Shown piece after piece: positions 8,452 through 64,000 of a stretch of DNA of 64,000 nt. The translations under genes and the position numbers were made by a program. The notes under the pieces are model-generated. The model made no database searches and was not told where the DNA came from. It was given only the letters and a program-made list of their open reading frames with translations. Location of the stretch: assembly GCA_039915165.1 (NCBI GenBank), contig JBDSNU010000018.1, positions 2,064 through 66,063 on the forward strand, read 5' to 3'. The DNA comes from Minisyncoccota bacterium (GTDB taxonomy: Bacteria > Patescibacteriota > Minisyncoccia > Phycocordibacterales > UBA9973). The first letter of the stretch is position 1, and the number at the start of each line of letters is the position of its first letter.

Positions 8452-8456
8452 AGATT

Positions 8457-18785: not shown

Positions 18786-18819
18786 AATTTTTTATATTTT
18801 TCTTTAAGTTAGTCTATAT

Positions 18820-18895: not shown

Positions 18896-18984
18896 TTACC
18901 GAAAATACAGAGTTTTTATATTTTAGTAAATTGGAAAAAGTTATCATTGAGTTATTCATAGTTTTATCCGAATGTTTTCCCCAA

Positions 18985-21895: not shown

Positions 21896-21898
21896 AAC

Positions 21899-21925
21899 AA
21901 AAAAAGCCGATATCGGCTTTTTTTA
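21899..21925. terminator. Bidirectional terminator (aaaaaagccgatatcggcttttttt)
   Basis: Perfect hairpin with A-run and T-run, between the yidC stop and the end of the T4SS-like cluster. Confidence 0.65.
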
Positions 21926-23176
21926 ATATTTATTACTATATAAAAGACCTGTATTTTTATCGATGAAGAACACTAATTGTTGAGCTTCGTCTACTTGAAT
22001 GTTTATCATATCGTATGTGGGGATTCCGGCGGTATAGATTGTGCTGAATGTATTTGAAGCAGTATTTATTTGATATAAGTTGTCATTGAAGTGATTGATA
22101 CCGGCATACCAACTATCGGGATATACAGCAGGATCAACACTGGTATTTCCTGCACAGATAAGGTTTTCATTTTGCAGCCACGCGCATTTTTCTGGCAAAA
22201 TATTGAGACTGATAGCAGAAATAGTGCTAGTCTTTGAATTATAAATTTTAGTACTAAATCCTGTATCGGAACTTTCAGAATAGAGAACGTATTGACCACT
22301 TGGGCTTACAGAAGTAGTGAGTCCTTTGATATTCCCTACTATTCGTTTGAGGCGTGAACTCGATTGGTCTAATAGATATACATATCCATCAGTCTTGGAT
22401 GCAGCTTTTGTTTGTAGATACACACCAGAAGTAGTCCATTGAGGCAACCATGACATAAAAGTAGAAGTAAAAAGTTTTTTGATTGATGATCCTGTAGTAG
22501 TAGAACTACTTACGGTTGTACCTTTTGCATCACGAGTAATTCTTACAACACTTTTTTGATCAGGAGAAACTGTAAGATTGTAAATATTATCCGAAAGATA
22601 AATCCCTGGAACTTGAGTTCGTGTACCATCGGAGTTTAGGGGCGGTACTGGAATACTATAAGTAGCAATAGTGTTGTTATCATTACGTAAAAATCGCAAA
22701 ATAGCAGTGTTATTACTATCTGCGAACATTGCCTCATAAATATTTGGAATAAAAATATTACTTACCTGTAGAGGGATTTCTTTATTTTTTATTTCATATA
22801 CATACCCATTAACTCTCGATACATACCGTACATAATGGTCAGTAATATATGTAATGATGGGTTTAATTTTTGGATCTGTTGAAGGAATAGAAACAGGCGT
22901 GGTAATACTGTAAATGGTATACCCAGCTATTGGTCGCGGTGAAAGTTGTTTCAATGCTGGTTCAGATGCAGCTGCTCCAGCATTTGCATCAATAGGACTT
23001 CCATCGGGGTTGGTATCTGGACCAAAGTTATTGCCGGTACTTGTCGTTTTTGGAAAAAATGACGTTAAGATATTTGGTACCGGTTGGCCAGTAGTTACAC
23101 GAGGACGAATATAGAAAAAATATACTCCACCGATAACGACTAGAACCACTAATAAAATTATGAGAGCTTTCCGCAT
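21923..23176 (-). CDS. N-terminally anchored extracytoplasmic protein (417 aa), TolB-like beta-propeller-like repeats; last gene of the T4SS-like cluster
   Basis: TM MRKALIILLVVLVVIGGVYFFYI; repeated SPDQKS / SPSGQYVLYSE motifs. Confidence 0.45.
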   Translation of the reverse strand: MRKALIILLVVLVVIGGVYFFYIRPRVTTGQPVPNILTSFFPKTTSTGNNFGPDTNPDGSPIDANAGAAASEPALKQLSPRPIAGYTIYSITTPVSIPSTDPKIKPIITYITDHYVRYVSRVNGYVYEIKNKEIPLQVSNIFIPNIYEAMFADSNNTAILRFLRNDNNTIATYSIPVPPLNSDGTRTQVPGIYLSDNIYNLTVSPDQKSVVRITRDAKGTTVSSSTTTGSSIKKLFTSTFMSWLPQWTTSGVYLQTKAASKTDGYVYLLDQSSSRLKRIVGNIKGLTTSVSPSGQYVLYSESSDTGFSTKIYNSKTSTISAISLNILPEKCAWLQNENLICAGNTSVDPAVYPDSWYAGINHFNDNLYQINTASNTFSTIYTAGIPTYDMINIQVDEAQQLVFFIDKNTGLLYSNKY

Positions 23177-23193
23177 ATGAATATTGTACTATA

Positions 23194-24843
23194 CTATCTC
23201 CCATCAACAGACCAGTGCCATGGTTCCTTCGAGAAGTTTTTAAGACCATAAGAAGGCTGCGAAGCATTATTCTGCAGCCATATAAAGCATTTATTATCAT
23301 GAGTACTAATGGTATCTGTTGCATTACCACAGGTGAAATCAAACGCCAGACCACTTTCATGATTTGAATGTCCAGGTACAGCAGTTGGCGGTTTACAAAT
23401 CGCTTTTGAGTTTGTTGTGTCACCATTACAATGAGCTTTACGCAAAGCAACCTGTTGTGCATTTGTTCTAAAACCTCCACCTTCTAATATTATGCCTTGA
23501 GCATAGGCAGCTGTAAGCATTCTAGTAAGGTTTGGTGCTATTGTTCTACATGCTAAAAATGATGATTTTTGTACAGTTACTCTTGTTATACCAGCAGTAC
23601 ATATTCCTGCAGCTCCCTCAGGTGCGGAAATATTGCCTTGGTTGATCAAAGGATCTGCATCTTCATCAGGTTGGATACCAATTGCCAGTTGTGCCGGGCC
23701 AATATTGTTATTGCTCACCAGTTTGGGGTTTATAGTATTTAAAATAATATAAGAAGTCATCGCAAGTAATAGTCCTCCTAATGCTGCAAAGAATGCGCCT
23801 TTGGAACTTGCTTTCAAAAAGGGCACATCAGTCATCATGTATTGGTAGCCCTCAAACATGAGACGGAATACCAGCATAACGGCAGATAGTCCGATCAAAA
23901 GATTTAATGCGTAGTTAAGTACATCGTTCATATCACAAAATTTCGGCCCAGCAGTTCCTGATGCTGCGGCAGTTGCACGTTGTTGAGCACAGAGATCGGG
24001 GTCGGGTAATACTTTTAGATCAGGGAAACCAGAGAGTAATGTATAACTATGCTGCGTATTGTAAGAGGCTTGGTCGGTAGTGGTAGAAATAATGTTGCCA
24101 GTACTACTATTGAAATGACCAACGGCATCGTTTACAGAATTTCCATTTAAGGTCACTATCTGTTGAATATAATACACAGCACTAGGGCCGAGTGAGTTCA
24201 AGCGCCATTGATAGGTGCCATCCTCATTTATCCCTTCTACACCTTTACTATTTTCACTATGGAGTGGACCACGAGCATCGGTCAGACTTTTTGCACCATC
24301 TGCTTGCGGGGTTTGAGTGTAATATAGCTCCGCCTTAAAACTACCTGGACTGAAACTACTTACTTTATCAATGTTAATTTTACCTGTTACTAAAATACTC
24401 CCACTAGTTTCCAGTGTTGTTACGAGGTGATCAATAGGAATACTAGCAGCAGCTGTTTTTACAGAAACTGTCGGAGTAATATATTTACCATCACCGCCCT
24501 TTGCCGGGAAGTCTACTACGCGTGCATAGTAAACAGTGTTTGCTTTGAATCCAGTGATTGACCAGGTCACAGTGCCTGTAGTTAATGGAGATGCCCCTGT
24601 CGGTCTTTTAATTGTAGGATCTATAGTTGTTACAGCACTCGGCCCTTTACCACTATATGTATCTCCTGCTGGGAAAGCATCTGTTTGTAGTACAAGTTTA
24701 TACGTATCACTGATCAATGCATCGGTCATTGTTGCATTGATCGTAACCTCTTTTGGTTTTTCAATAGTAAGGTTGTATGCAGCGAAACTACGGCCGACGA
24801 TTAGTAGGGTGAAAATAAATGTTAGCCACAGTATTTTTTTCAT
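23194..24843 (-). CDS. Fusion protein: signal peptide + ~300-aa extracellular domain + two TM helices + C-terminal M15 (VanY-like D-Ala-D-Ala carboxypeptidase) peptidase domain; candidate cell-wall hydrolase of the T4SS-like cluster
   Basis: M15 zinc-peptidase motif VPGHSNHESGLAFDF near the C-terminus. Central hydrophobic pair LLIGLSAVMLVFRLMF / FFAALGGLLLAMTSYIIL. Confidence 0.6.
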   Translation of the reverse strand: MKKILWLTFIFTLLIVGRSFAAYNLTIEKPKEVTINATMTDALISDTYKLVLQTDAFPAGDTYSGKGPSAVTTIDPTIKRPTGASPLTTGTVTWSITGFKANTVYYARVVDFPAKGGDGKYITPTVSVKTAAASIPIDHLVTTLETSGSILVTGKINIDKVSSFSPGSFKAELYYTQTPQADGAKSLTDARGPLHSENSKGVEGINEDGTYQWRLNSLGPSAVYYIQQIVTLNGNSVNDAVGHFNSSTGNIISTTTDQASYNTQHSYTLLSGFPDLKVLPDPDLCAQQRATAAASGTAGPKFCDMNDVLNYALNLLIGLSAVMLVFRLMFEGYQYMMTDVPFLKASSKGAFFAALGGLLLAMTSYIILNTINPKLVSNNNIGPAQLAIGIQPDEDADPLINQGNISAPEGAAGICTAGITRVTVQKSSFLACRTIAPNLTRMLTAAYAQGIILEGGGFRTNAQQVALRKAHCNGDTTNSKAICKPPTAVPGHSNHESGLAFDFTCGNATDTISTHDNKCFIWLQNNASQPSYGLKNFSKEPWHWSVDGR

Positions 24844-24864
24844 AGCTTTAGTTTATCACGAAAA

Positions 24865-25836
24865 TTAATTGAAATTCACAGTAAAGCGCTTTGTGATGTT
24901 TTGAAGATTGAACACAATAGTACTTACTGCAGTTTTGAAGTTGGACTGCCCCCCGTTATCAGGACGTGAAAGCGGCAATTCGTTTTTTACACTAGCGGGT
25001 GTGAGGACTGTACCCGCATCATCTTTGTAAGAAAACGCTAAATCATGACTAAGGCTAATAGGTGCAGAGAAATAATAGGGCTCGAAGTGAACAAGAACAC
25101 CAGTGCTATAAGTTGAGAGGGTGCTTGTTGAACCATTGCTATAATCAATGAAGCCATCATTATTGAAATATCCAGCAACTACAGGATCTCCCGGGGTAAT
25201 CGTGATATCTGCATTGCCGGTGAAGCTGCCATTTTTTTCGGTAACAGCAATTTGTTCACTACTATTTAATCCGTCATTTTGAAATAAAATTGTATTTTTG
25301 CCATATCCAGAAGCACGCTGTAATGCATCACCATTTTGAGTCCAGCTGTAACTCATAGATTTGGGGGCGCTGATAGATGGTACTGCCATTACACGAATGA
25401 TTCCCCCAACTGAAGGAAGAGGAAGTCCTTTATAAAAGGGTGGCGTATAACTATCCGCACCTTCCCATAGCATATCTACGCTGGCTGGGCGCAATATTAA
25501 TGTTGCCGCTGATGTCTCAAAACTCCCGCCTGTAACAACAGCAGTAATTGTTCCTGTTACCCCACTCGCTGGCGCGGTAACAGTTATAGTGGTCAACCCC
25601 TTCCCGCCATCAATGGTTTTACTATTATATGTCCAGGTAATATTGGCCTGACTAATATCAGCACTATAGCTTTGTAGACTAATAGTAGTTTGCTGTAGTG
25701 GGAGTGGATTTACCGGCACGCTGGAAATACTAATATCGATCTGTGCACTTTGAGCGTGCACGATACGAACAATAAAAATTGCCGCAATTGCAATGCTTGT
25801 TATCAGGGTGCCTATTATGAGAGAGAAACGTTTCAC
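24865..25836 (-). CDS. Secreted protein (323 aa), unknown function, in the T4SS-like cluster
   Basis: Signal peptide MKRFSLIIGTLITSIAIAAIFIVRIVHA. Confidence 0.45.
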   Translation of the reverse strand: MKRFSLIIGTLITSIAIAAIFIVRIVHAQSAQIDISISSVPVNPLPLQQTTISLQSYSADISQANITWTYNSKTIDGGKGLTTITVTAPASGVTGTITAVVTGGSFETSAATLILRPASVDMLWEGADSYTPPFYKGLPLPSVGGIIRVMAVPSISAPKSMSYSWTQNGDALQRASGYGKNTILFQNDGLNSSEQIAVTEKNGSFTGNADITITPGDPVVAGYFNNDGFIDYSNGSTSTLSTYSTGVLVHFEPYYFSAPISLSHDLAFSYKDDAGTVLTPASVKNELPLSRPDNGGQSNFKTAVSTIVFNLQNITKRFTVNFN

Positions 25837-25863
25837 CTATTTATTATAGCAAAACTACGTACG

Positions 25864-27741
25864 TTATGCTCTTTGTTGAGACTGAGAAAATTCGTGCTTA
25901 GCTTTTTGAATAGAAATAACTTGAGAAGGATCAGAGGTAATGATTTGATCTTCCGTATAGGAAGCGATAATCTTGATTGCCACATGTTTAAGTCCAGCAA
26001 AGAAAATGCCTTCCCCTACCCCTGATTCTAACAATAGATACTTTTCTTCATCAGTAAGATTGAATGTCTTTTGCAGCACATCCATGGTTGATGGAGATTG
26101 TTTTAGCAATAGCTGAATAGAAGAGTTGGTAATAATCGGTACACCATAAGGACTTTTCATGAAATCCCCCACGTCTTGAGTGATAGTACATAGTCCAAGA
26201 TAGTATTTACGTCCACGCTTTGCGATAGAGTATAGGAAAGAAGCAGTATCATCTGACTTCATCATCCACCAGGCCTCATCAACAACAAGTAATCGTTTTT
26301 TGAGCTCTTTGCGTACAGCATTCCAAATAAAGTGCGTAACAATATACATTGCTGCCGGCTTTAAGTCGTCTTCCATGTCACGGACAGAAAACACTACAAA
26401 TTTTTTATTAATATCAACGTTTGTTGGCTGGTTGATGAAGCTTGCCCATGAGCCATGAGTATATTTTGTCAGTCGCTGTAAAATAGAATCAGTCCCCTCC
26501 ATACCAGAGAGCACCATTTCAAAGTCAGAGAGTAGGGGTGGTTCAATCGTAGAAAAGTCAGAGTCAGCGCTAATATCTTTCAATGAATATGTTTCTGTGA
26601 TAGCACGGTCGATAATAGAGTCTTCTTCTGCACTCAACCCTCCCAACATAATACGGAATAGTCCAACCAGGTTAATAATGTTGCTGCGCAATACATCAGC
26701 AGATGATTCATCTTCACGAGGGATTGGTAGATCAAAAGGGTTGATGTGGTGATCAGATGAAAGTGAAATATTGAAATAACGCCCGCCGATTGCTTCAGCC
26801 AAATACTCGTATTCCCTTTCCGGGTCGATCACAATAACATCTGTATCAAACATGAGTGTACGAATGATCTCGAGTTTTGTGGCATAACTTTTACCGGCAC
26901 CAGACTTAGCGAAAATAATTGAGTTATAGTTTTCTAGACTAAAGCGATCAAAGATCACCAAGCTTGAATTGTGACGGTTAACACCATACAAGATACCTGT
27001 TTCACTTGTTAAGTCGAACGAAACGAAAGGAAACATACTAGAAATAGGCTCGGAATTGAGCTTCTGTGTTACCTGTAGTTTGTCTGTACCAAGCGGCGCA
27101 ACTGTTTTGAAGCCATCTTCTTCCTGGAAGAGTGTTGGTTTTATATAAATAAGCTTTGATTCCAAAAGGGATTTGATCTCGCTTTCTGTACGGAAAAGGT
27201 CAGTTTCATTATCGGCATAGATAGTGATATACATACCAAGGTCAAACATTTTCTCCTGGGCTTGTGTGAGGTTGTCACGAAGTTCTTCAAGGTCTTCACG
27301 CGCAGTGTCGAGCATTGGATCACGAACCAACCCTTTTTGCTGACGAACAATGATCTGACTTTCTACTTCAGCGATCTTTTTCTGAAAGTGTTTCAAGAGC
27401 TCAGCCGTTTCGATTGGGTTGATATAAATAGCGATATCAAAAATCTTATCAAGGTTGATGATCGGCGTTAGCCAGTTGTCAGTTAGATAACGAGGGTATG
27501 AAATGATAAAAAACGTACGAACGATTTTATCACCGATACGCATGGATTTGGACGTTATTTCAATAGCAGAAGGAGCAATTTTGTCTGCCAGTTCCATTGT
27601 TTCCCATTCATGAACTTGATTTGATGAAATGGGCAAGAGGCCTCCGTTATCTTTCATGTGTATAGTATAACACCAGTAGTGCCTATCCGTTAGATTGGCT
27701 AGTGCTTTCTCCAGGGTTGAATGTTTTGTAGAGCACCTCAA
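25864..27741 (-). CDS. VirB4/TraC/PrgJ-like T4SS ATPase, major C-terminal portion (625 aa); the N-terminal 200 aa lie in a different frame
   Basis: Walker A FAKSGAGKSYATK, Walker B LLVVDEAWWMM, VirB4-type motif GLCTITQDVGDF. No ATG in frame; preceded by the out-of-frame fragment at 27683-28318. Confidence 0.8.
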   Translation of the reverse strand: MRCSTKHSTLEKALANLTDRHYWCYTIHMKDNGGLLPISSNQVHEWETMELADKIAPSAIEITSKSMRIGDKIVRTFFIISYPRYLTDNWLTPIINLDKIFDIAIYINPIETAELLKHFQKKIAEVESQIIVRQQKGLVRDPMLDTAREDLEELRDNLTQAQEKMFDLGMYITIYADNETDLFRTESEIKSLLESKLIYIKPTLFQEEDGFKTVAPLGTDKLQVTQKLNSEPISSMFPFVSFDLTSETGILYGVNRHNSSLVIFDRFSLENYNSIIFAKSGAGKSYATKLEIIRTLMFDTDVIVIDPEREYEYLAEAIGGRYFNISLSSDHHINPFDLPIPREDESSADVLRSNIINLVGLFRIMLGGLSAEEDSIIDRAITETYSLKDISADSDFSTIEPPLLSDFEMVLSGMEGTDSILQRLTKYTHGSWASFINQPTNVDINKKFVVFSVRDMEDDLKPAAMYIVTHFIWNAVRKELKKRLLVVDEAWWMMKSDDTASFLYSIAKRGRKYYLGLCTITQDVGDFMKSPYGVPIITNSSIQLLLKQSPSTMDVLQKTFNLTDEEKYLLLESGVGEGIFFAGLKHVAIKIIASYTEDQIITSDPSQVISIQKAKHEFSQSQQRA

Positions 27742-28318
27742 TCACCTCTTGTGTACCAAGTTGTACTAAGCGCAGCCCTACTCCTGAAAGTCCTTGTTCA
27801 ACAACACTTACTCGCTGCTCAAGCTGGGTGCGCTCTTCTTCGAAATCACTAATTGCTCCAGTATCTGAAATTGGTTTACTTTTTAAAAATGAGAAAAATC
27901 TCCCAATACCAGAGTTTTGTTTCAACACCGCAGGTATATAAGGAATAACAACGAAAAAGGATTTGCGCATCACATTCACTTGGTCAGTAAATGTTTGAAT
28001 GAATTGTATATACTCGCGTGTTTGGATCTGCAGCAATTGCTCAGTCTGTTCCTTTAGGCGATTTTCAAGGGTCAAAATGTATGGACGAACATCATAACGT
28101 CGAGACTGCACTACGATTTGTACTGGAAAATCAAGAGTATTTAAGAAATTTTGAAACTGTACCAGTGTTGCACGTTGCTCATCATATGACTTAAGACTCA
28201 AGTTGATAGAAGAAACCAGCACAATAGTACACAGTGTGCCGTCTTTCAATACGACGATACCATCGCGTACTTCTTGTACTGGAACGAATTGTTGTGCAGG
28301 TGTTGATGATACGGCCAT
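27683..28318 (-). CDS. VirB4/PrgJ-like ATPase N-terminal fragment (211 aa), split from the main ORF by a frameshift
   Basis: Resembles the N-terminal domain of Gram-positive VirB4 homologues (PVQEVRDGIVVLKDGTLCTIV). Overlaps the downstream frame by 56 nt. Confidence 0.55.
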   Translation of the reverse strand: MAVSSTPAQQFVPVQEVRDGIVVLKDGTLCTIVLVSSINLSLKSYDEQRATLVQFQNFLNTLDFPVQIVVQSRRYDVRPYILTLENRLKEQTEQLLQIQTREYIQFIQTFTDQVNVMRKSFFVVIPYIPAVLKQNSGIGRFFSFLKSKPISDTGAISDFEEERTQLEQRVSVVEQGLSGVGLRLVQLGTQEVIEVLYKTFNPGESTSQSNG

Positions 28319-28326
28319 GAGAATTT

Positions 28327-28731
28327 CTATACTTTATTTTTGGGGTCAATCACGTCGACGCTCCAAGACAATGTCTTGAGCTTACTCTCGCTCATTGTAG
28401 CACGGTCACCTGAAAGAGATGTTGTAGGACGTGCTGTCGCATTGTTTCTATTAGAATCCTTATGCCATAGATACAATCTTGAGTGGCTATAGAAATTAAT
28501 AAATGATTCAACAACGTTGATAAATGGCTTATCATTATATTTCATAAAAGCTAATGCCCCTGCAAAAATAACAACGGCTGGACCAACAACAATTGCGATG
28601 ATGGTCGGCAAGAAATGAAATGCCAAATACCCTAACCCTGCTCCCCCAGCAAGATATGCAAATTGTTTGAAGGTAAGCGGGCCAAACACTTTGTCTTCCA
28701 TATCAATAAATTGTGGAACTTTGAATTGCAT
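28327..28731 (-). CDS. PrgI/VirB3-like small membrane protein
   Basis: VPQFIDMEDKVFGPLTFKQFAYLAGGAGLGYLAF followed by two TM helices, immediately upstream of VirB4. Confidence 0.5.
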   Translation of the reverse strand: MQFKVPQFIDMEDKVFGPLTFKQFAYLAGGAGLGYLAFHFLPTIIAIVVGPAVVIFAGALAFMKYNDKPFINVVESFINFYSHSRLYLWHKDSNRNNATARPTTSLSGDRATMSESKLKTLSWSVDVIDPKNKV

Positions 28732-28732
28732 A

Positions 28733-29368
28733 TTATATATTGTCTATTGATTCATGATACGGGTCAATAGTATGAGTTGGCGCAGTAGCCTCTACAGGTT
28801 TTTGCATAGATACAGGAACTTGCGCAGTATCAGCAGGAGCTGTTACCCCCGGTTCAGTAATAGGAAGATTGTCAGGCACAGTGCCTTTTTGCAGAGTGTA
28901 ATTGCGAGTAGTAGGGCTAGACATTGAGGATTGCTTTAATCTTTCAGCGAGTGAGGTCAGGCTCGATGACGAGGCAAGAGAAGTAGAAAGGGTTTTGGGG
29001 ATGGGGACATCTTCTGTTTTTTGGGATAGATTATGATCAAGATCTTTATAAACATCAATTAATAAAAGGATTTCAGCAATAACTTTTTTATCAATAACCT
29101 CCTTTATTTTTTGCTTATTAACTTCAGGTGTTATCAGTGTAGAGATATAAGAAATCAGTTCATCTTTTGTTCTTGTTCCAAATAAAAATAATAACACTTC
29201 ATTTGGTAAATCAATTTTTTCTGCCTCACTCGCTACTAACATAGAAAGTTCGTTTTTTACCGCCTCAAATTCATCTCCAAAGATAAACTCTTTAACTTCT
29301 TCAGGGATATCTTGAACGTACCCTTCAATATCATTTATTGTATCTTCATCCATATTATTTCGACTCAT
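28733..29368 (-). CDS. Acidic/Ser-rich hypothetical protein (211 aa) in the T4SS-like cluster
   Basis: Clean ORF tightly packed between the VirB3-like and VirB6-like genes. Confidence 0.4.
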   Translation of the reverse strand: MSRNNMDEDTINDIEGYVQDIPEEVKEFIFGDEFEAVKNELSMLVASEAEKIDLPNEVLLFLFGTRTKDELISYISTLITPEVNKQKIKEVIDKKVIAEILLLIDVYKDLDHNLSQKTEDVPIPKTLSTSLASSSSLTSLAERLKQSSMSSPTTRNYTLQKGTVPDNLPITEPGVTAPADTAQVPVSMQKPVEATAPTHTIDPYHESIDNI

Positions 29369-32300
29369 CTTTTAGTTTATTTCGTTGATCTTCCATGTGC
29401 TTATTGATATTTTGCCATGTTTTAAGGTGTGTTTCTGCCTTCTCCTTCTCTTTTAGTTTATCTAAAAAGGCTTGTTTAACATTTACATCATCAGGTGCAT
29501 TTACCCATGCTCTCTTTGCGGCATTTAAATCATTATTAATATCTTTAATATTGTACTTGCTCTGCTCTCTAACTTTAACGAGTTCCTGGTATTGTCTTAG
29601 GTCTTCTTTACGGTCCGCTTCTGCATCTTTGTCTGTTAATGGGGTATTTAGTTTTGTGCGGTGAGCATCAACACTTGTCTTTTCTGCTGCGTCGAGGATA
29701 TCGTACATAGTTTTTCCTTTCTTTGTGCCAGATTGAATACTCCCGTCTCGAATAATATCTTGTTGTTCAGCAAGCGTTAATTGTGTCTTAAAGCTAGGAC
29801 TAGTTTGATACATCTCCAAGCCAATCATATCCTGAAAACCTTTTGTAAGTGTATTTTCAATTTTTTCTAAGTCTGCTGTAATTTTTGATTTCTCTTTAAT
29901 CTTCTTCGCGGCTTTGGCATCACCTGCCGCACGAACCTCAGATCCCATGAGTGCCCCCACTGTTGCACCAAGGAGGTCGGCAATTTGTGCACCGCCTTCG
30001 CCTGTACTTGCTAATGCTGCTAATCCTTGAGTCACATAACCCCCCTTCTGAAGGTTTTTAGCAAAGTCTTCTCTGCGAGCAGAAGTAATTTCAGATGCTT
30101 TTTTCAAAGGCTCTGGTGCAGGCGGTATTGCAGCAATAGCTGTAACCACAGGGGCAGTTGCTGCTACTCGAGTCTTTTCTGTTTCGTAAGCGGTCGGGTT
30201 ATTTTTTTTCCAATCCTTTACATCTTTCATAGAAAGATTATTTGTTTTAGCGATTTCCTTATCGACAATACGATCAACTGTACGCTTTCTATCAGCACTC
30301 TTTCGTTCGTTATATGCCTTGATTTGGTCGTCTGACATTTTTTCTTCCAGCAATGTGTTCTTCTCTTCTTGAGAGGCTTGTCTACGTTTAATATCTGCTT
30401 CTATTCCACCTTTACGTTGATCTGTTCCTAATCCAAGACCTATTCCTGCAAGAGCGTTGAGAGGTTTTTGGTCAGCATTGATACCAAGTCGTGAGAAAAA
30501 TTGTTTACCTACGCCTGTTTGACGAACATCATAGGAACCATTACGTCCTGCATTAAGTCCACGTTGCAATGTTCGTCCGGTAAATCCAGCCAACCCACTT
30601 TTTGCTGCCATGTTACGAATGCCTATACCAACACGTGACTCATCAGTACGCTTAGCAAGTCCTCCTACAACTCGACCCCCGAGTAAGGCTGCACCACCTG
30701 TTGCTAGCCCTGCTGCAAGGCCGATTCCAGACGTTGCTAAGCTTTGTACACTCTTCCCTATTTCACCAGCAAAACTCTCGGCTGCTTTTTGTGCTGCACC
30801 GATCAAGAAGAAAATAATAACCATCGGGATGATGACACCAAGTGCTAGCGCAAAGAAGTTACCTGACGGATCTTCGTAACCAATTTGCTTGGCGAAATCA
30901 CTCGAAAGAAATGTAAATATAATGTATAAGAAAAAGATGAATACCGGGGCCATCATGGCATAGCTTGTCACTTCTTTGAGCCAATCACTCCAACGCAAAC
31001 GAGCAATACCTCCGAGTAATGGTATGTCTCGACTCAAAAATGCAAATGGAGAGAAGATCATACATATATAGAGTCCAACAACACGACCAACGAAAAGGAA
31101 TGTCACCTTGAAGAACATGACGGTAACACCTGCCATGATCAGTGCGGCAACTATACAAATAATACCGAAATAGTTGGCCTGGTCTCGCTCAGAATTACTC
31201 GCTACCGCACCTGTTTTTGTTGCGTCTACTTTTAATGCATTGCCTTCACTGGATGAGTCTGAAGTACTTTGCAATACGCTGGCTTGAAACAATTGTTGAG
31301 GGTTGAAGGCGGAAACTATTTTTTCTGATAGTGGCCAGTACCCTCCTGTTCCTTGTTTTGCATGCGCCGCATCACATTTCCCATCAACAATATTTACTGT
31401 ATCACAAACAATCATCTGACTATAAAACATACGGGCAGTAATATTTGAGATATCGATAATCACATGCGTAGCAAAAAGACTGAAGTTAATCAGTAAAGCA
31501 TTCACGATCAGGTTCGGGATCACTTTCTTCATCACTCCTGATTTGCTTGGGTCAAATACCGCAGAAAATCCAGTAAATACCATAATGATGATGAAAAATA
31601 CATTGGCGATATCGCGCACCAGTTTCCATCCAGTAATAGCAAATGCATAACGATATGATTGATCGCTTAAGGAGTATCCCAAGAAAAAGTCGAAAAGTTT
31701 ACCAAACAATCCTGCAACTGTGGCGACAAGCCAATACAGGCCGTAGGCAATTTGAGCCATACAGCCGTTAATAGTCCCTTTAGATACTGGATCAATACTA
31801 CATCGAGGAAGGTTGTCTGCAACTTCACGCCCGCCCGCAGTAGCTGTTTGGTTATTAGTTTGTGCTTGCACGGCAGCATCGTCTGCAGGAATAGAGATAG
31901 TAGAAGATTGTCCGATTTTGAAGTAGGTGCCGCCTTTACAGAGGGTCCCAAATGTACCAATAGTATCTCCCATACCATCCCCTTGATATAAAGCCGACCC
32001 ATTACCTTCAGCAGCATCGTCGGTTTTATTGCCACAATACCACATTGTAATTTCTACCGTACTTGGTTTAGAAAAAGTAACAGTATCAATATGACTAACT
32101 GTTCCTTCATTTTTTGTCCCAGTTATATTTCTGATAAAAGTATACTTGGCACCGCTTCTTGTACTTTTATCTAATATTGAAAAGTTAGCTAAGGTTGTTG
32201 GGTTTTTATACTCCCCTGTTCCACCTTTACTCTTTTGGTAAAGAGCACCTTGGTTATCAGTGAACTTACCAGAACCTTCAACAAGATAAGGCACAGTATT

Positions 32301-32714
32301 AAGCCAGCACTGCCCGGCACTATTTTTATCACAAACTCTGATTACAAAGGATTCAGGGTCATATATGTTTTCCCAAAAACCAGTTGTATCTTGTACATGA
32401 GCCCACTTTTTCTCAATCTCATCCTTATTCGAAGTTAAAAACCCTAAACTTATGTCTACCTTAAGCCCGACTACACTTTTATTTGAATTGTCTTGAATTA
32501 AAGACCCTGCTTGTGCAGGCGATACGCCGCTTCCAACCCCATCAAAGACAGTAAAATAGTTACCGTATTTGTTCAGTGTATTATCGTCGGGTGGAGCAGC
32601 AAAAGTTTTATGCGGGAAAATAGCTACCGCACATAAAATAGCGATAGTTAAAAAGAATGTTTTACTCAAACGAGAAAAGGGATTTTTTATACGACGAAGG
32701 AGACGTGCGGACAC
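29355..32714 (-). CDS. VirB6/TrbL-like polytopic membrane protein (1119 aa): signal peptide, ~270-aa ectodomain, multi-TM core, ~400-aa Lys/Glu-rich coiled-coil cytoplasmic tail
   Basis: At least 8 hydrophobic helices between aa ~320 and 640. C-terminal third is charged and low in hydrophobics, with heptad-like periodicity. Confidence 0.55.
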   Translation of the reverse strand: MSARLLRRIKNPFSRLSKTFFLTIAILCAVAIFPHKTFAAPPDDNTLNKYGNYFTVFDGVGSGVSPAQAGSLIQDNSNKSVVGLKVDISLGFLTSNKDEIEKKWAHVQDTTGFWENIYDPESFVIRVCDKNSAGQCWLNTVPYLVEGSGKFTDNQGALYQKSKGGTGEYKNPTTLANFSILDKSTRSGAKYTFIRNITGTKNEGTVSHIDTVTFSKPSTVEITMWYCGNKTDDAAEGNGSALYQGDGMGDTIGTFGTLCKGGTYFKIGQSSTISIPADDAAVQAQTNNQTATAGGREVADNLPRCSIDPVSKGTINGCMAQIAYGLYWLVATVAGLFGKLFDFFLGYSLSDQSYRYAFAITGWKLVRDIANVFFIIIMVFTGFSAVFDPSKSGVMKKVIPNLIVNALLINFSLFATHVIIDISNITARMFYSQMIVCDTVNIVDGKCDAAHAKQGTGGYWPLSEKIVSAFNPQQLFQASVLQSTSDSSSEGNALKVDATKTGAVASNSERDQANYFGIICIVAALIMAGVTVMFFKVTFLFVGRVVGLYICMIFSPFAFLSRDIPLLGGIARLRWSDWLKEVTSYAMMAPVFIFFLYIIFTFLSSDFAKQIGYEDPSGNFFALALGVIIPMVIIFFLIGAAQKAAESFAGEIGKSVQSLATSGIGLAAGLATGGAALLGGRVVGGLAKRTDESRVGIGIRNMAAKSGLAGFTGRTLQRGLNAGRNGSYDVRQTGVGKQFFSRLGINADQKPLNALAGIGLGLGTDQRKGGIEADIKRRQASQEEKNTLLEEKMSDDQIKAYNERKSADRKRTVDRIVDKEIAKTNNLSMKDVKDWKKNNPTAYETEKTRVAATAPVVTAIAAIPPAPEPLKKASEITSARREDFAKNLQKGGYVTQGLAALASTGEGGAQIADLLGATVGALMGSEVRAAGDAKAAKKIKEKSKITADLEKIENTLTKGFQDMIGLEMYQTSPSFKTQLTLAEQQDIIRDGSIQSGTKKGKTMYDILDAAEKTSVDAHRTKLNTPLTDKDAEADRKEDLRQYQELVKVREQSKYNIKDINNDLNAAKRAWVNAPDDVNVKQAFLDKLKEKEKAETHLKTWQNINKHMEDQRNKLKDESK

Positions 32715-32744
32715 TCGTATAGTGTATCACGTAAGCGTTATTAT

Positions 32745-33854
32745 TTACCACAAGTTAATGCGCAAAAACTTTTCTGTAACTGGTGCAATAATATCTAAGT
32801 CACCTAATGATGATCCTGTAGTCGGTACGGATTGTGGAGAAGAAAATGTAACCAATCCATATGGTCCACGGATAAGAGAAACACCAGGCAAGAGCTGGTC
32901 AATGCCATGTGCCGGTAATGGAACTTCTGGATTATCATCGTTGTTATCATGCACGGCAGTTGTATGAGCAAGTCCGTATCCAGAGAATGTTAGGAACGAA
33001 AGACTGTCCTGTGCAGGATCAGAAGTAGGGATAGTAACCCCTGTTTTATTCTTAACATAGGCTGCAATTTCAGGGTTATTGTAATATGATCGCCAAAATG
33101 GTGTAGCAATGTGAAGTTTCAAGCGAGGGTCGTTTGCGCCGTTGCTATTAATAGCTGGAAGTTTCGATTCACAGTATGCATAGAGTTCCAATATAGAATC
33201 AGCCTTATTTTTAAAGGCATCATGGTTGGCTAGTTCAGTTTCTACATCAGTATCATTGTGAAGTGTTTGTGCTAGTGTATAAAATCTACTTTGCAAAATA
33301 TTTAATTGAGCAAGCTGGTCTGCAGTAAAAGGAATGGTAATGTCATCATCACTACATACTGAAGCACTGCCGGCATTTGAGTTGCCGGGCGAGTTTGCAT
33401 CTCCTCCTGAATTGTTATTACTACCATTTGCACCAGTACCTGTTGAGCCATTTGCCCCACTGCCATTGCCTGTAATAGGGTTATTTGCTCCAAAACTACC
33501 AGCAAGACTTGTTGTACCATTAGTAAAGTTACTGATATTAACATTTCCTGTACCGCCGATACCAATCCCTCCTAGTCCACTTGTATCAATAGTACCGTCA
33601 CCTCCAAAACCATTTGCCCCTGTTGTTGACCCATTGTTATTTTTTGGAGTGCCATCAGCATTGAATTGAGAAGTGCCTTCACCAGGTAGTATCGCCGCCG
33701 CATCCTTCTTTGTACTCAGTCCAAGAAATTGTCTGAAGGTTAATGGCGCAGCGCCATTTTTAATAGCTTTATTCCGTCCAATAAGCCAGATAATACCTAA
33801 GATAAGGAAAAATACAGCGATAAGAGTAAGGATAATTTTTAGGATGCGATTCAT
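32745..33854 (-). CDS. N-terminally anchored Gly/Asn-rich protein (369 aa)
   Basis: TM MNRILKIILTLIAVFFLILGIIWLI, followed by G/N/S-rich low-complexity region. Confidence 0.4.
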   Translation of the reverse strand: MNRILKIILTLIAVFFLILGIIWLIGRNKAIKNGAAPLTFRQFLGLSTKKDAAAILPGEGTSQFNADGTPKNNNGSTTGANGFGGDGTIDTSGLGGIGIGGTGNVNISNFTNGTTSLAGSFGANNPITGNGSGANGSTGTGANGSNNNSGGDANSPGNSNAGSASVCSDDDITIPFTADQLAQLNILQSRFYTLAQTLHNDTDVETELANHDAFKNKADSILELYAYCESKLPAINSNGANDPRLKLHIATPFWRSYYNNPEIAAYVKNKTGVTIPTSDPAQDSLSFLTFSGYGLAHTTAVHDNNDDNPEVPLPAHGIDQLLPGVSLIRGPYGLVTFSSPQSVPTTGSSLGDLDIIAPVTEKFLRINLW

Positions 33855-33864
33855 ATGATAAATA

Positions 33865-36105
33865 TTATATAGCTATGTTTTTATAGAAGAAATTACTCGA
33901 CTCAGTTGCATGGGCTTCGATAGGGTCTTGCACATCAAGTTGTTCTTGTGGTGCGACGGGCACTATAGGACTATTGTCTATCACATAGGCATTGTTAATA
34001 CATTGTAAGTCAACAGGGTTTCCCTGTGCCGCACGGCTTTTAATATAAGCTGCCTTGGCAGTGCCAACAATATCATTAATTTGCTTCTGAATTACCAACA
34101 TTTGACGAATATTGTTTTCTGTTTGTCCGATATTTGTATCGTACTGTGCATCAATAGCAGAAGCAGCCTTGTTGTATCCCAAAATGCTATAGAGATTGAT
34201 CTTTGTATCAGCCAAGAATCCATCCGCATAGCTCTTGTCGGCATCGTTTTGTCCTGCGATAAGAAATGCATGTTCAACAGGCGTTGCACTATATGGAGTT
34301 GGAGAAACAGCGTCTGTAAAAGGTTGTAGTGTATTCCAATATGAATATTGTTCTGTAACAAGGTTAAAGGCGTTGTGATATCCTGCAGAAATTTTTGCAG
34401 CATTATCGTCGTCGGCATGAGCCCATGTCGTATAAAATACTCGAGGTACCTGAATAGCGGCACCGCTTACTGGATCATTCAAATACCCAGGAGTAGTCCA
34501 TATTGGAGGAGCTTCCCCAGCGTGATCACCAATCCCTAATATTGTGCCAAGAAATGACCCAATAATTGGCAGGCTTTCAACTATTTTGTGCGAAGTAGAT
34601 GTTTTTGTTGGATCATCCTGTACGAGTGGTCCAAACATTGCTTCTAGGTTGGCTGCTGCACCCGCTGACCATGTAGGTGTAGGTCCAGGAATACAATAGT
34701 CCAATGCCCCTAGGTTAGGAATAATACGGTTAATTGCAGTCTGTGCGTCTTTGGTGCGAACAAGAAAGTCATATTGTGTTTGTAGTATAAGGCGGAATTG
34801 TTGCGGTCGTGAAATATCAAAGTTCTGATCAATGCCGTTTCCTCCCTTTGATGCCTGGTATCCAAGCGAAGCGGTGTCGCTGACTGTTGAGTTGAGAGCG
34901 TTGCCGTTACTGTCTAATACAACATTGTCTCCAGAAGAACTAAATCCAAAATCAACAGTGCTTCCCTGACTGCCACTACCACGCAACCCTTTTGATAGAA
35001 GACTATTTACAAAACTATCAAAAAATCCGCCAAGCACCTCGTTGATTTTGTCTGCATACTCTAGTTGTCGAATCGGCGAAGTTGTAATAGCCTGCACTTG
35101 AGCCGCAATGATCGATCCAGGCGTATCAGTTTGCCATTGTATACAAGTTGGATTGGTCGAAAGACCTCCAGAAATTGCTGTACTAGAAGAAGTAAAACTA
35201 TTATCCGCATATTGCACACAGTGTTTCATATCAAGAAATCCATTGTTGCGCTGGATTTCATCTTTTGAAGACTGTTGTTCAGACGCGACTTTTCGGGCGA
35301 GGTTATCAGTAGCAGTAAAGAGTGCACCAATAGAGTTATATTGAGGATTAAGAAAAGAGTCCCACCCCCCATTTGTGAAATTACCTAAAAATGAAGTGTA
35401 GGCTTTTGCTTGGGGGGTATCTGGATATACATTGAGTAATCCATCAGAGCGACCGGTAATGCCCTGACGAATACCTGACTCGAGAGCATTACCAAAAATA
35501 GAGTCAGACTGTGGCAGGTCTGCTAAGTATGACTTTATTTGATTGTTGGCAATTGTTTTTAGGAAAGAGTTACTGTTTTGAACATATAGAGGGTTACCGT
35601 TGAGGCCTGTATTTACCCAGTTCAATGTTTTATTAGTTACTTGTGCCAATGTGTTTTTTGCAACAGCGTATGCGATACCGTTCAAACAGTTTGTTGTTCG
35701 ATTGGCGGAATCAATTTTTGCCTGAGTCTTTTCGTCAGTAGTAGACACTGGATCGCTATCACCCCCATTATTAAAGGCAGATTTAATACTTTTGGCAAAA
35801 CTAGTATTTGAAAGGAAGTCGCTGGCAGTATTTGCTAAAAAACCACCAACATTGGTACAGCTAGCGATCGCGCCACCCACGCCGCTGATAGATATCCCTT
35901 GATATGAATTTCCAGAATTAATTTTGACATTAGGATTAAATTTCTGCAGTGTTGGAGATGCTGCCTTGTTCAAACACTGTGTACGAGCTGTTCCAGTAAG
36001 AGTAGTGCAGTCAGTAGTAACCGCAGCTGCTACTGATTGCGGTAGTGAAAAAGCAATAATACCGATGACTGCGATGCCTATAATACTTTTTTTACTGAAT
36101 GACAT
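33865..36105 (-). CDS. Large secreted protein (746 aa), unknown function
   Basis: Signal peptide MSFSKKSIIGIAVIGIIAFSLPQSVAAA. Confidence 0.45.
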   Translation of the reverse strand: MSFSKKSIIGIAVIGIIAFSLPQSVAAAVTTDCTTLTGTARTQCLNKAASPTLQKFNPNVKINSGNSYQGISISGVGGAIASCTNVGGFLANTASDFLSNTSFAKSIKSAFNNGGDSDPVSTTDEKTQAKIDSANRTTNCLNGIAYAVAKNTLAQVTNKTLNWVNTGLNGNPLYVQNSNSFLKTIANNQIKSYLADLPQSDSIFGNALESGIRQGITGRSDGLLNVYPDTPQAKAYTSFLGNFTNGGWDSFLNPQYNSIGALFTATDNLARKVASEQQSSKDEIQRNNGFLDMKHCVQYADNSFTSSSTAISGGLSTNPTCIQWQTDTPGSIIAAQVQAITTSPIRQLEYADKINEVLGGFFDSFVNSLLSKGLRGSGSQGSTVDFGFSSSGDNVVLDSNGNALNSTVSDTASLGYQASKGGNGIDQNFDISRPQQFRLILQTQYDFLVRTKDAQTAINRIIPNLGALDYCIPGPTPTWSAGAAANLEAMFGPLVQDDPTKTSTSHKIVESLPIIGSFLGTILGIGDHAGEAPPIWTTPGYLNDPVSGAAIQVPRVFYTTWAHADDDNAAKISAGYHNAFNLVTEQYSYWNTLQPFTDAVSPTPYSATPVEHAFLIAGQNDADKSYADGFLADTKINLYSILGYNKAASAIDAQYDTNIGQTENNIRQMLVIQKQINDIVGTAKAAYIKSRAAQGNPVDLQCINNAYVIDNSPIVPVAPQEQLDVQDPIEAHATESSNFFYKNIAI

Positions 36106-36109
36106 ATTG

Positions 36110-37012
36110 TTATGAAGTAAGTATACCGTATTTTGTTAAATAAATATCTAGATCGTACAATGCATTTTGTCCACGAGTGAAATACACTTTATATAAAGCC
36201 ACTCCAACTAGCGCTTGTGTCCCGTTATCTTCCATTTGCTGCAGGTAGCCAAACGATGTTGCGACACCAGTGAAACTATTAATCATATCGAGGTGATATT
36301 GCGCTACCCCAACTGGAACTTTAATAGCCACAAGTTCTTTTGCCATTGCAGTATAGGCATCGCCAATCGGTGTTAGTTGCGGTAATTGGCTATAGTCACC
36401 TGTTTCAGCTGCTTGCACAATAATAGTGATATCACCTTGTTCCAGGTTGTATTTATTGATTATTTTTGCCACAGCAGTACGGTAAGTCTTTAAAGAAGCC
36501 GTAGAGGTTGGCACAGTGTGAATGTTTTTGAGCGAATATTTATTACTAATTGAGTCAACGTTTACTGATGAGCCAAGTTGGTCAGCTACACTTTGTAGTG
36601 CAGTGTCATCAATAGCATCATTTTGACTCAATGCAGTGGTAATACTAAAGAGTTTTTGTGCAATGGCATCTGTTTCATTTTGTGGTGCACCGGTACTTGT
36701 ATCTGTAATCCCTAATGCCAACTTCTTTTCTTTGATGATTTGTTCATTTGTTTTGCCATTTGTATATAAAACCGTCGGATCAAGTCCCCACAGCTTTTCT
36801 TCCCAGTCAGGTATGCCATTTCCGTTAGAGTCTTTTGATGTCAAATCACTAATACTCAGGTTACCGATATCAGCTTTTGTCGCCTTTTTTGTTTTATGAA
36901 AAATATTATAAAACCAGTTTGTTTGCACAACCAAAATAATCGCTATTACTCCAATAGCGATCCCTCCACGGATTAAAAATTGTTTACTAGGACCAGATGT
37001 TGTTGGGGGCAT
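36110..37012 (-). CDS. Bitopic membrane protein (300 aa): N-terminal TM plus extracytoplasmic domain; candidate VirB8-like component
   Basis: TM GIAIGVIAIILVVQT. Position within the cluster. Calcium-binding-like loop DSNGNGIPDWEE. Confidence 0.35.
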   Translation of the reverse strand: MPPTTSGPSKQFLIRGGIAIGVIAIILVVQTNWFYNIFHKTKKATKADIGNLSISDLTSKDSNGNGIPDWEEKLWGLDPTVLYTNGKTNEQIIKEKKLALGITDTSTGAPQNETDAIAQKLFSITTALSQNDAIDDTALQSVADQLGSSVNVDSISNKYSLKNIHTVPTSTASLKTYRTAVAKIINKYNLEQGDITIIVQAAETGDYSQLPQLTPIGDAYTAMAKELVAIKVPVGVAQYHLDMINSFTGVATSFGYLQQMEDNGTQALVGVALYKVYFTRGQNALYDLDIYLTKYGILTS

Positions 37013-37023
37013 AGATTATATGA

Positions 37024-37392
37024 CTAAAAGCCGAAATATGAAGTGGTACCGGAAATGTTGTAATTACTTGTTTTGCGTACAGGAAAAGGAAGTTGTACGC
37101 CGAATGCTGTAATTTGACACGTACTAAAATCGGGAATGATACTTGTCGTGCCCAAAATCCAATCTCCTACTCGCGGAGTTTTTGAAAGGCTATTTGCATA
37201 CAGAGGAATACCGCTAATATTTGAAATGACCACAGGTCCAGTGCCTGCGCCTGTACAAGTAACAAGGGGGACAGTGGTTAATTTAACTTTGCCACCAAAA
37301 GATTTAGTAAGCGGGTTGGATGCATATGTTGCCAAAGGGATAATTATAAGTACTGCAATTATTGCAAGACTGATGATCATATGTTTTTTCAT
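37024..37392 (-). CDS. Small secreted protein (122 aa), first gene of the cluster; possible pilin-like/surface subunit
   Basis: Signal peptide MKKHMIISLAIIAVLIIIPLATYA. Confidence 0.4.
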   Translation of the reverse strand: MKKHMIISLAIIAVLIIIPLATYASNPLTKSFGGKVKLTTVPLVTCTGAGTGPVVISNISGIPLYANSLSKTPRVGDWILGTTSIIPDFSTCQITAFGVQLPFPVRKTSNYNISGTTSYFGF

Positions 37393-37430
37393 TTTTTTAT
37401 TATAGCCTGTTCTAGTTTTTCAACCTAGTG

Positions 37431-38808: not shown

Positions 38809-38835
38809 AATGTATATACTTACCGCAATCTATTA

Positions 38836-63037: not shown

Positions 63038-64000
63038 TTATTTATATCGTGCCATAATTTCTTCCTCAACAATTGCTCGAGGTCGTCCATATTTCAAATA
63101 TGACAATTCTTTTATCTTTTCTGCCGTCTCTGTATTGCCTCGAGGAGGGAATGGAGTGTGAGAATTGAATGCTTTTACAGGTACTCCATCAACAAGCATT
63201 TTGATATAACAGTTTAAATTTTGCTGTTTGATAATATCATCAGGAGTAAATGTAGGAGCAAATTGTTTTGAAAATACTTCAGCGTTTTCTGGACTAACAC
63301 GGTGTACTACCATTGTTCCAACGTTACCAAACACGGCATTTTTAATACCCTCATCGAGTTGTTCAATGTATTGGTGCGCAACAGTAAGAGATAAACGATA
63401 TTTACGCGCCTCAGAAAGAATAGTGTTGATTGAATCTGTAGTAACATTTTGGAATTCATCAATGTACATATAGAAATCATTCACTTCACTTTTGCCAATA
63501 ATATCTACACGAGAGAGCGCTGCCATAGTGATTTTACCAACGAGCAACAATCCAATAAGGTGAGAGTTGATATCACCGAGACGACCTTTTGAAAGATTTA
63601 CCAACAATATTTTTTTCTTGTCCATGATGTCACGGAAGTTCAACACACTTTCTTGTTGTGCGATAACAGGACGCATTACATCGTTTGAAATAAATACATC
63701 AAACTTGTTTGTGATATATGGTACGAAGTTTGCAAGGGATGCTTCACCAGTAGTCTTCTCTGCATTTTCCCAGAACTGTTTGATGATAGGATTTTTACAT
63801 TTAGATAATTTCATATCGCGAAATGCTTTATCAGAAAGTACGCGACCGATTTCAAGCAGGGTAGAGCCAGATGCAGGATCTTCCATTACCAGTCCGGCTG
63901 AGTTACGGAAGTATTGTTCGAAGGCAGGACCGCCAGCAACTTTCATATCAAAGAGTTTATTAAAGATCGCTAGTAGTTCATTGATCACAAAAATCTTTTG
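63038..64000 (-). CDS. VirD4/TraD/TraG-like T4SS coupling ATPase, C-terminal part; N-terminus beyond the window end
   Basis: Walker B/AHQ region YMYIDEFQNV...RKYRLSLTVAHQYIEQL. Frame stays open to position 64000. Confidence 0.55.
   Translation of the reverse strand, partial: QKIFVINELLAIFNKLFDMKVAGGPAFEQYFRNSAGLVMEDPASGSTLLEIGRVLSDKAFRDMKLSKCKNPIIKQFWENAEKTTGEASLANFVPYITNKFDVFISNDVMRPVIAQQESVLNFRDIMDKKKILLVNLSKGRLGDINSHLIGLLLVGKITMAALSRVDIIGKSEVNDFYMYIDEFQNVTTDSINTILSEARKYRLSLTVAHQYIEQLDEGIKNAVFGNVGTMVVHRVSPENAEVFSKQFAPTFTPDDIIKQQNLNCYIKMLVDGVPVKAFNSHTPFPPRGNTETAEKIKELSYLKYGRPRAIVEEEIMARYK

Follow-up and report, generated by a model that had tools for sequence, protein, structure and literature searches.

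Within a 64,000-nt stretch of contig JBDSNU010000018.1 from a Minisyncoccota bacterium (assembly GCA_039915165.1), hereafter the window, we analyzed a run of minus-strand genes at 21923-37392 that lies between ksgA and yidC. We conclude with high confidence that this region encodes a chromosomal, origin-proximal and relaxase-free type IV secretion system (T4SS) of the Patescibacteria clade, in the arrangement of Paceibacteria and Nomurabacteria, and that it stems from conjugation machinery of the MPF_FATA class minus its DNA-processing half. The system as such has already been published (2023, 2025); the locus is an instance of it and adds no new kind of system. What it provides is a clear example from Paceibacteria in which each gene is described, and one lead, namely that the sole VirB2-like element found here is fused to wall enzymes whose type changes from one near-identical strain to another.

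The T4SS of Patescibacteria is the first T4SS reported to be essential for survival of its own carrier. In Southlakia epibionticum, an essential T4SS that most resembles Gram-positive conjugative systems lies beside the replication genes and has pilin genes without a recognizable relaxase or coupling protein (Wang et al., 2023; PMC10633639). A survey of 3,035 genomes placed most VirB4 proteins of these bacteria in one Patescibacteria clade inside MPF_FATA, accompanied by TrsD, PrgI/VirB3, VirB6 and VirB2-like proteins, with relaxases being rare; in Paceibacteria and Microgenomatia the T4SS genes occur near dnaA, dnaN, rnpA, ksgA and rpmH (Quinonero-Coronel et al., 2025; PMC12102498). In a 2025 review the Patescibacteria systems are listed among the new branches of the T4SS superfamily (PMC12857230).

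Layout of the cluster

The open reading frames (ORFs) at 21923-37392 form an unbroken minus-strand series with intergenic gaps of -14 to +30 nt. An original prediction made from the letters alone had described eleven co-directional genes with small or negative gaps, flanked by yidC and ksgA. The series, the spacing and both flanks were borne out, but the number of genes is twelve, both by ORFs and by independent public gene calls on identical contigs, which give the same twelve products (118/300/746/369/1104/211/134/211/597/323/549/417 aa). We number the genes from the ksgA side to the yidC side:

g1, 37024..37392, minus strand: small secreted protein with signal peptide and hydrophobic N-terminus, 122-aa ORF (118 aa in the public calls)
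g2, 36110..37012, minus strand: bitopic membrane protein of 300 aa, transmembrane (TM) segment 9-38, helical ectodomain, TSP3-type Ca-binding motif DSNGNGIPDWEEKLWGLDP
g3, 33865..36105, minus strand: secreted 746-aa protein with long helices, from a very large T4SS-linked family without a name
g4, 32745..33854, minus strand: membrane-anchored protein of 369 aa, TM 1-31, G/N/S-rich low-complexity region
g5, 29355..32669, minus strand: predicted extended VirB6-like protein of 1104 aa (ORF readable from 32714, 1119 aa)
g6, 28733..29368, minus strand: 211-aa protein without TM segment, N-terminal helical domain, disordered linker, conserved C-terminal DPY[RH]E
g7, 28327..28731, minus strand: PrgI/VirB3-like membrane protein of 134 aa, Pfam PF12666, TM hairpin 30-65
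g8, 27683..28318, minus strand: TrsD-like protein, the VirB4 N-terminal domain as a 211-aa polypeptide of its own
g9, 25864..27657, minus strand: VirB4 ATPase, C-terminal two-thirds, 597 aa, NCBIfam conju_CD1110 and Pfam P-loop_TraG
g10, 24865..25836, minus strand: secreted or anchored all-beta protein of 323 aa, hydrophobic N-terminus
g11, 23194..24843, minus strand: three-module protein of 549 aa with head, pilin hairpin and M15 tail
g12, 21923..23176, minus strand: membrane-anchored protein of 417 aa, TM 1-27

On the low-coordinate side the cluster is followed by yidC (21170-21895, plus strand), rnpA, dnaA and dnaN, and on the high-coordinate side by ksgA (37431-38225, minus strand), a MazF-type toxin gene and uvrD.

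Core components: VirB4, TrsD, PrgI and a predicted VirB6-like protein

The g9 product exceeded the cut-off of the NCBIfam equivalog model conju_CD1110 (383.7 bits against 325, profile positions 178-733) and matched Pfam P-loop_TraG with an E-value of 7.4e-26. The neighboring g8 product gave NCBIfam matches to VirB4_plasma (positions 105-283, 1e-10), to TrsD (1.9e-6; at 27.8 bits well under the family cut-off of 200) and to the CD1110 VirB4 model (positions 2-114, 1.7e-5), and carries PF26593 TraC-like in public annotation. Because g8 and g9 match the N-terminal and the later parts of the same CD1110 model, VirB4 is encoded here in two pieces. In a scan of one genome per species, which returned at least 597 relatives, we took the best 80 loci (L001-L080), picked by VirB4 similarity, for comparison; g8 was a gene apart from virB4 in 80 of the 80. 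The VirB4 ATPase had thus been recognized correctly in the original prediction, though its split into two genes had been missed. Two other gene models were rejected. A VirB4 frameshifted between 211-aa and 625-aa ORFs that overlap at 27683-27741 is incompatible with the ATPase start at 27657, downstream of the TTG start of the 625-aa ORF, and with the two separate genes found in all 80 loci and in the public calls. Nor is the 746-aa g3 VirB4.

The closest proteins to g9 came from metagenome-assembled genomes (MAGs) of Candidatus Paceibacterota (100% identity) and Candidatus Nomurabacteria (97%), and all nearest VirB4 relatives, at 73-100% identity, belonged to Paceibacteria, Nomurabacteria or Patescibacteria MAGs. 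The g7 product matched PF12666 (E 3.1e-11, 44.1 bits, cut-off 27), in agreement with its earlier reading as a PrgI/VirB3-like protein. Together, the CD1110-family VirB4, PrgI and TrsD identify the machine as MPF_FATA, and so the Gram-positive type that had been proposed holds.

The case for g5 as a VirB6-like protein is made at the level of the predicted fold and by gene position. An AlphaFold2 model built with 100 homologues (mean predicted local distance difference test score, pLDDT, 80.2) predicts three parts: at the N-terminus an extracellular beta domain, then, at about residues 300-632, a polytopic membrane core of helices, and at the C-terminus a long helical domain for which a cytoplasmic location is predicted. 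When the model was compared with the Protein Data Bank (PDB) by Foldseek, the two matches of highest probability were both R388 TrwI/VirB6 (0.77 and 0.60), with no significant E-value; among natural proteins the R388 VirB6 fold fits the membrane core best. The gene stands two genes upstream of the PrgI-VirB4 block with g6 in between, roughly the prgH position in pCF10. Sequence links to VirB6 were found neither by PDB profile search nor by Pfam scans of 43 orthologues (no TrbL/VirB6) nor by hhalign against PrgH. The earlier designation of the 1119-aa ORF as VirB6-like is therefore borne out by fold and position, and sequence profiles do not detect the relationship.

Between this gene and prgI, g6 encodes what is probably a cytoplasmic partner. 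Its terminal DPY[RH]E is kept across 41 positional orthologues, with D202, P203 and Y204 nearly invariant and low identity elsewhere, and a homologue is present in a distant cluster, L084.

The cluster is a fixed part of the chromosome

All of the best 80 loci belong to Paceibacteria, Nomurabacteria or unclassified Patescibacteria MAGs. Some carry the submitter label 'uncultured Candidatus Saccharibacteria', which looks loose in view of a VirB4 that is 90% identical to that of Nomurabacteria. These 80 species-level genomes keep the order ksgA-g1..g12-yidC-rnpA-dnaA-dnaN, and because the same order recurs in so many of them the run of genes is not due to chance. Even the distant cluster L084 retains g2, g3, g5, g6, PrgI, VirB4 and g10 in unchanged order. 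The median identities to the window over the 80 loci were as follows:

VirB4, 77.5%
TrsD, 57.6%
DnaA, 56%
DnaN, 49%
YidC, 43%

Hence VirB4 (25864-27657) is better conserved than DnaA (18985-20346) and DnaN (17688-18785) of the same genomes; the choice of loci by VirB4 similarity biases this comparison somewhat, but the gap is large nonetheless. The cluster is thus a chromosomal system that is inherited vertically and strongly constrained, VirB4 to an unusual degree, and the synteny comparison upholds the earlier view of a chromosomally fixed apparatus.

We weighed this conclusion against the possibility that the genes are a remnant or an active copy of an integrative and conjugative element that came to lie between yidC and ksgA by chance and has its relaxase, origin of transfer (oriT) and coupling protein outside the cluster. 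The VirB4, PrgI and TrsD families do stem from monoderm conjugative elements, and the window contains a tyrosine recombinase gene (46500-47405) and an IS200 transposase gene (8463-9080) as well as the following ORF:

63038..64000, minus strand: ORF for a VirD4-like coupling protein, truncated by the right-hand end of the window, Pfam TraG-D_C

Its match to TraG-D_C (E 2.6e-6, 27.8 bits, cut-off 22) places a putative coupling protein about 26 kb from the cluster, with none inside; no PDB sequence match was found for this ORF. It had been overlooked in the original prediction, whose picture of core-gene flanks otherwise stands, and it may or may not work with the T4SS; in Southlakia a distant t4cp is non-essential (PMC12102498). 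Against a mobile element, 80 species-level genomes have the cluster in the same position beside dnaA and dnaN and with the same gene order, conservation is higher for VirB4 than for DnaA, and the recombinase has XerC/D architecture and lies 9 kb past the cluster. None of the 52 window ORFs of at least 135 aa matched a relaxase family in Pfam, although the seven without any Pfam match could be novel relaxases. No inverted repeat resembling an oriT was found within or next to the cluster, the repeats detected being short and at the level of chance, and no direct repeats were found to flank it. The GC content of 0.39-0.43 is near the flank values, so that composition shows no island signature or shift. 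The earlier statements that relaxase and oriT-like repeats are lacking were confirmed within these limits. Moreover, the 3,035 Patescibacteria genomes surveyed yielded only 109 relaxases, 15 of them near virB4 (PMC12102498). Since the synteny is conserved, the mobile-element explanation is largely refuted, and we consider it extremely improbable.

A pilin-domain protein with interchangeable wall enzymes

The vertically inherited T4SS contains one protein that may be a detail of the locus not previously described: a pilin-domain subunit with interchangeable wall-cutting enzymes. The product of g11 is composed of three modules:

residues 1-262, minus strand: head with signal peptide and Ig-like region
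residues 263-381 (23701-24057), minus strand: VirB2-type pilin hairpin
residues 434-545 (23209-23544), minus strand: VanY/M15 peptidase tail, VanY

In VanY-type M15 zinc peptidases the metal ligands are H-x(6)-D plus a further H, contained in SxHxxGxAxD and ExxH motifs. The corresponding metal-site motifs SNHESGLAFD and EPWHW are readable in the g11 translation, and the tail matched VanY PF02557 with an E-value of 4.9e-12 (46.2 bits, cut-off 25). The M15 peptidase fusion had been noticed in the original prediction; the pilin domain within the fusion had escaped it. The window copy itself falls below Pfam reporting for this domain, but T4SS_pilin PF18895 was detected in 36 of 45 orthologues and TrbC/VirB2 (PF04956) in 12 of 45. 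When the window copy and its nine closest relatives were left out of an orthologue hidden Markov model (HMM), the model found residues 267-381 of g11 at 77 bits, and orthologue HMMs without the window copy scored the window protein at 77-108 bits. No further pilin-domain ORF was found in the 64-kb window; g11 alone carries the domain.

The architecture recurs in related loci. A C-terminal tail of at least 60 aa is present in 70 of 73 pilin-domain proteins from 69 loci; grouping by sequence gave 21 tail clusters and 36 head clusters, and by Pfam the tail types are NlpC/P60, VanY/M15, YkuD, SLT, 3D and Amidase_5. Relative to its orthologue in a genome whose VirB4 is 97% identical, g11 shows 57% identity up to residue 395 with the hairpin almost unchanged. 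Past residue 395 the similarity stops sharply, the orthologue tail being NlpC/P60 and the g11 tail M15. Another relative has the hairpin and the M15 tail in common with g11 and differs in the first approximately 200 head residues. Seven genomes with VirB4 identity of at least 88% hold six tail clusters between them, tandem paralogues have the same head and different tails, and heads and tails are exchanged between genomes whose VirB4 proteins are 89-97% identical (for example L001:12803-14539, L002:7655-9292, L006, L007, L012 and L021). Modular swapping in the pilin-domain protein is thus shown by these comparisons. In the literature searched, no description of a pilin-hydrolase fusion was found.

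Swapped tails among near-identical strains suggest that the end of the machine that faces outward is under diversifying pressure, possibly exerted by host cell walls. The apparatus could be mainly an attack and attachment organelle, in which exposed or polymerized g11 cuts the host wall, the Ig-like head binds the host and no other cargo is needed. The spread of tails over 21 clusters and six enzyme families, their replacement at 97% VirB4 identity with a break at residue 395 and the tandem paralogues with a common head and unlike tails all speak for such a role. On the other hand, Gram-positive T4SSs also have modular membrane-anchored hydrolases that act on the donor wall, such as PrgK of pCF10 (PMC12102498), and because of these, remodeling of the cell's own wall suffices to explain the enzyme. 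Furthermore, there is no evident immunity gene (g12, which comes next, is conserved across all tail types), and formation of a pilus is itself a supposition. We therefore take the organelle to be a possible but rather unlikely explanation. A more specific version, which we regard as doubtful, would make g11 a polymorphic 'warhead', that is, a conserved hairpin that the T4SS would pull out of the membrane to be exposed or polymerized, with a host-binding head and a peptidoglycan-cleaving or remodeling tail that are both exchangeable. Under that proposal, and with the same degree of doubt, the Paceibacteria T4SS would be a host-wall-breaching organelle that diversifies its specificity through the exchange of cassettes, in the manner of polymorphic toxins or phage tail fibers. 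Alternatively, g11 may be no more than a VirB1/PrgK equivalent anchored by a pilin-like hairpin.

Surface and accessory proteins

The remaining genes, g1 to g4, g10 and g12, encode six proteins with a signal peptide or a membrane anchor. Seven such proteins had been expected beside the four named components; the seventh further protein exists but is g6, which has neither. As had been anticipated, most of these partners themselves match no Pfam or NCBIfam family, and an NCBIfam scan of ten cluster proteins (g1-g10) gave matches confined to g8 and g9. The suggestion that they are lineage-specific did not hold up for g3, whose family comprises 4,951 cluster representatives at E<=1e-3; a distant member of 1,506 aa (L084:561-5081) holds the same position in another T4SS cluster. 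The predicted structure of g3 (pLDDT 70.3) matched generic coiled coils only, and neither a fold relative nor a significant PDB profile match was found.

Among the membrane-anchored proteins, g2 has four residues (D61, W70, E72 and L74) that are invariant in 32 orthologues, four of which match TSP3_bac (best E 5.7e-9); profile comparison revealed no relation to PDB entries or to PrgL. The all-beta protein g10 is conserved in 76 of the 80 loci, and weak matches of its orthologues to Ig_3 (five), PKD_3 (two) and aBig_2 (one) suggest that it probably consists of tandem Ig-like domains. For g12 the best five PDB profile matches were all TolB, albeit weak (E 0.05-0.9), and orthologues matched PD40 (two) and PG_binding_1 (four); judged from these similarities, the protein probably folds as a TolB-like beta-propeller and associates with the cell wall. 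The genes g1, g4 and g6 evolve fast and keep their positions. Thus g4 was seen by tblastn in 8 of 80 loci, an ORF of variable size filling the same place, and g1, which has no Pfam or NCBIfam match, shows the pattern FGG...C...GP...ILG.Y..P...C...YG, with the motif and two Cys common to positional orthologues in 10 loci.

Proposed function and direction of transport

We propose that TrsD and VirB4 would dock at the membrane, on PrgI and the VirB6-like channel, as one ATPase. This ATPase would drive pilin-domain subunits from the membrane to build a short pilus or conduit that crosses the cell wall. In g11, both the Ig-like head and the peptidoglycan enzyme would face outward and open the cell's own wall, the host wall or both, while the ectoproteins g1-g4, g10 and g12 would make up the wall-spanning and host-contact part. 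Such a machine would export proteins to the host or import macromolecules from it, and would not conjugate. By analogy with Southlakia epibionticum, the cluster is probably needed for episymbiotic growth.

Outward transport of effectors and inward transport of host DNA or macromolecules have both been proposed in the literature (PMC12102498; PMC11665869; PMC12857230). An inward machine would be an uptake conduit like ComB of H. pylori or the archaeal Ced system, feeding nucleotides to a cell that does not synthesize them. This has been suggested for Patescibacteria (PMC12102498, concluding remarks; PMC11665869) and is in line with the lack of a relaxase among the window ORFs of at least 135 aa and of a coupling protein in the cluster, and with weak NCBIfam matches of VirB4 to the DNA-import models CedB (E 1.1e-8) and CedD (E 1.8e-4). 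However, the CedB match reaches 34 bits against a cut-off of 700 and reflects generic VirB4 similarity, and no DNA-binding or nuclease component was recognized in the cluster by Pfam and NCBIfam scans. Outward-facing wall enzymes suit either direction and so do not discriminate. We consider a dedicated uptake function tentative and on the whole unlikely.

Several points weigh against our assignment of a relaxase-free, Patescibacteria-clade T4SS and the function proposed for it. Our view covers a 64-kb window of the genome, and a relaxase or separate pilin genes may lie elsewhere. Membership in the Patescibacteria clade is suggested by near-identity to Paceibacteria proteins and by the CD1110 model. 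A VirB8-like protein was not recognized, as hhalign comparison of g2, g10 and g12 profiles with PrgL was non-significant and PDB profile searches were negative. Polymerization of g11, like its host-directed role, is an inference. With respect to function, a PNAS perspective calls the role of the T4SS 'completely unknown' even in Saccharibacteria, and the requirement for host-dependent growth was shown by transposon sequencing (Tn-seq) for Southlakia only (PMC10633639) and for no member of the Paceibacteria.

Other features of the window

The convergent ends of g12 and yidC are separated by a clear terminator, the exception in promoter and terminator scans that otherwise gave no enrichment over shuffled sequences:

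21898-21925, both strands: bidirectional intrinsic terminator, AAAAAAAGCCGATATCGGCTTTTTTT, which scores on each strand

Shine-Dalgarno-like cores were present upstream of just 4 of 58 window ORFs, and 28 of the 58 had a TANNNT (-10-like) box starting 10-20 nt before the start codon, the background being 20%. Clear TATAAT-like boxes lie within 20 nt of several cluster starts, for example those of g1 (7 nt before the ATG), g2, g4 and g10; the -10-like boxes are clearest at 37393-37410, 33855-33875, 25837-25855 and 23177-23195. Judged from sequence, their position suggests leaderless mRNAs or per-gene promoters.

The spacer region of dnaA and dnaN (18699-19036) contains one perfect DnaA box (18831) and three boxes with one mismatch, a group that fits a replication origin there; over the whole window DnaA boxes were not enriched (22 against 21.3 expected). 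Between ksgA and uvrD, a MazF/PemK toxin gene (38225-38584) has an 85-aa ORF upstream, the predicted start of which is spanned by a 17-nt near-perfect palindrome (38793-38827); toxin gene and ORF were detected in none of the 80 related loci. At 6733-9080 the gene for a T2SSE ATPase of the PilB type, a motor of type IV pili, has an IS200-like Y1 transposase gene directly after it. A 149-aa SET-domain protein is encoded at 11177-11626 (Pfam E 1.1e-25) in this small bacterial genome. The longest ORF for a CCA-adding/poly(A) polymerase-family protein (49360-51021) overlaps a tRNA-Arg gene on the same strand (50949-51021), and its true start is probably further downstream.

Comparison with known systems

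With the Patescibacteria-clade T4SS defined by Quinonero-Coronel et al. (PMC12102498) the locus agrees in VirB4 with a separate TrsD, in PrgI/VirB3, VirB6 and a VirB2-like pilin, in that no relaxase was found, and in its position by dnaA, dnaN, rnpA and ksgA; there is no essential difference. In the main text of that study VirB1-like hydrolases and VirB2-like pilins are separate, whereas a single polypeptide combines them here and in 69 related loci.

The T4SS of Southlakia epibionticum ML1 (SEML1_0005-0019; PMC10633639) is located beside replication genes like the locus described here and has the same order of an approximately 1,100-aa VirB6-like protein, PrgI, a TrsD-like protein and VirB4, then a wall hydrolase and Ig-like proteins. 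Neither cluster has a recognized relaxase or coupling protein. Southlakia encodes six small VirB2-like pilins in an array of their own, together with an NTF2-like (VirB8-like) protein and a lysozyme-type hydrolase that lacks a pilin domain; the window, in contrast, has a single pilin domain fused to M15, no recognized NTF2-like protein and the extra genes g1-g4 and g12.

The Prg/Pcf system of pCF10 from Enterococcus faecalis, the prototype of MPF_FATA, has the same local order of PrgH (VirB6-like), PrgI, PrgJ (VirB4) and PrgK (hydrolase), and its VirB4 and g9 both fall into the NCBIfam family CD1110. It differs in having the coupling protein PcfC, the relaxase PcfG, the adhesin PrgB, the VirB8-like PrgL and a one-piece VirB4, and it is without a pilin; hhalign of g5 against PrgH, as of g2, g10 and g12 against PrgL, was non-significant. 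A separate TrsD related to the VirB4 N-terminus stands beside the ATPase in the Trs systems of pGO1 and pSK41 (TrsD plus TrsE; PMC12102498) as it does here, but unlike the locus these are plasmid conjugation systems with a relaxase. The Trw T4SS of R388, finally, belongs to the diderm systems and includes an outer-membrane core, in this respect also unlike the locus. Its TrwI/VirB6 (PDB 7o3v and 8rt9) has 261-272 resolved residues against the 1104 of g5 and shares 10% sequence identity with it, the g5 protein adding the N-terminal beta and C-terminal helical domains to the predicted VirB6-like core.

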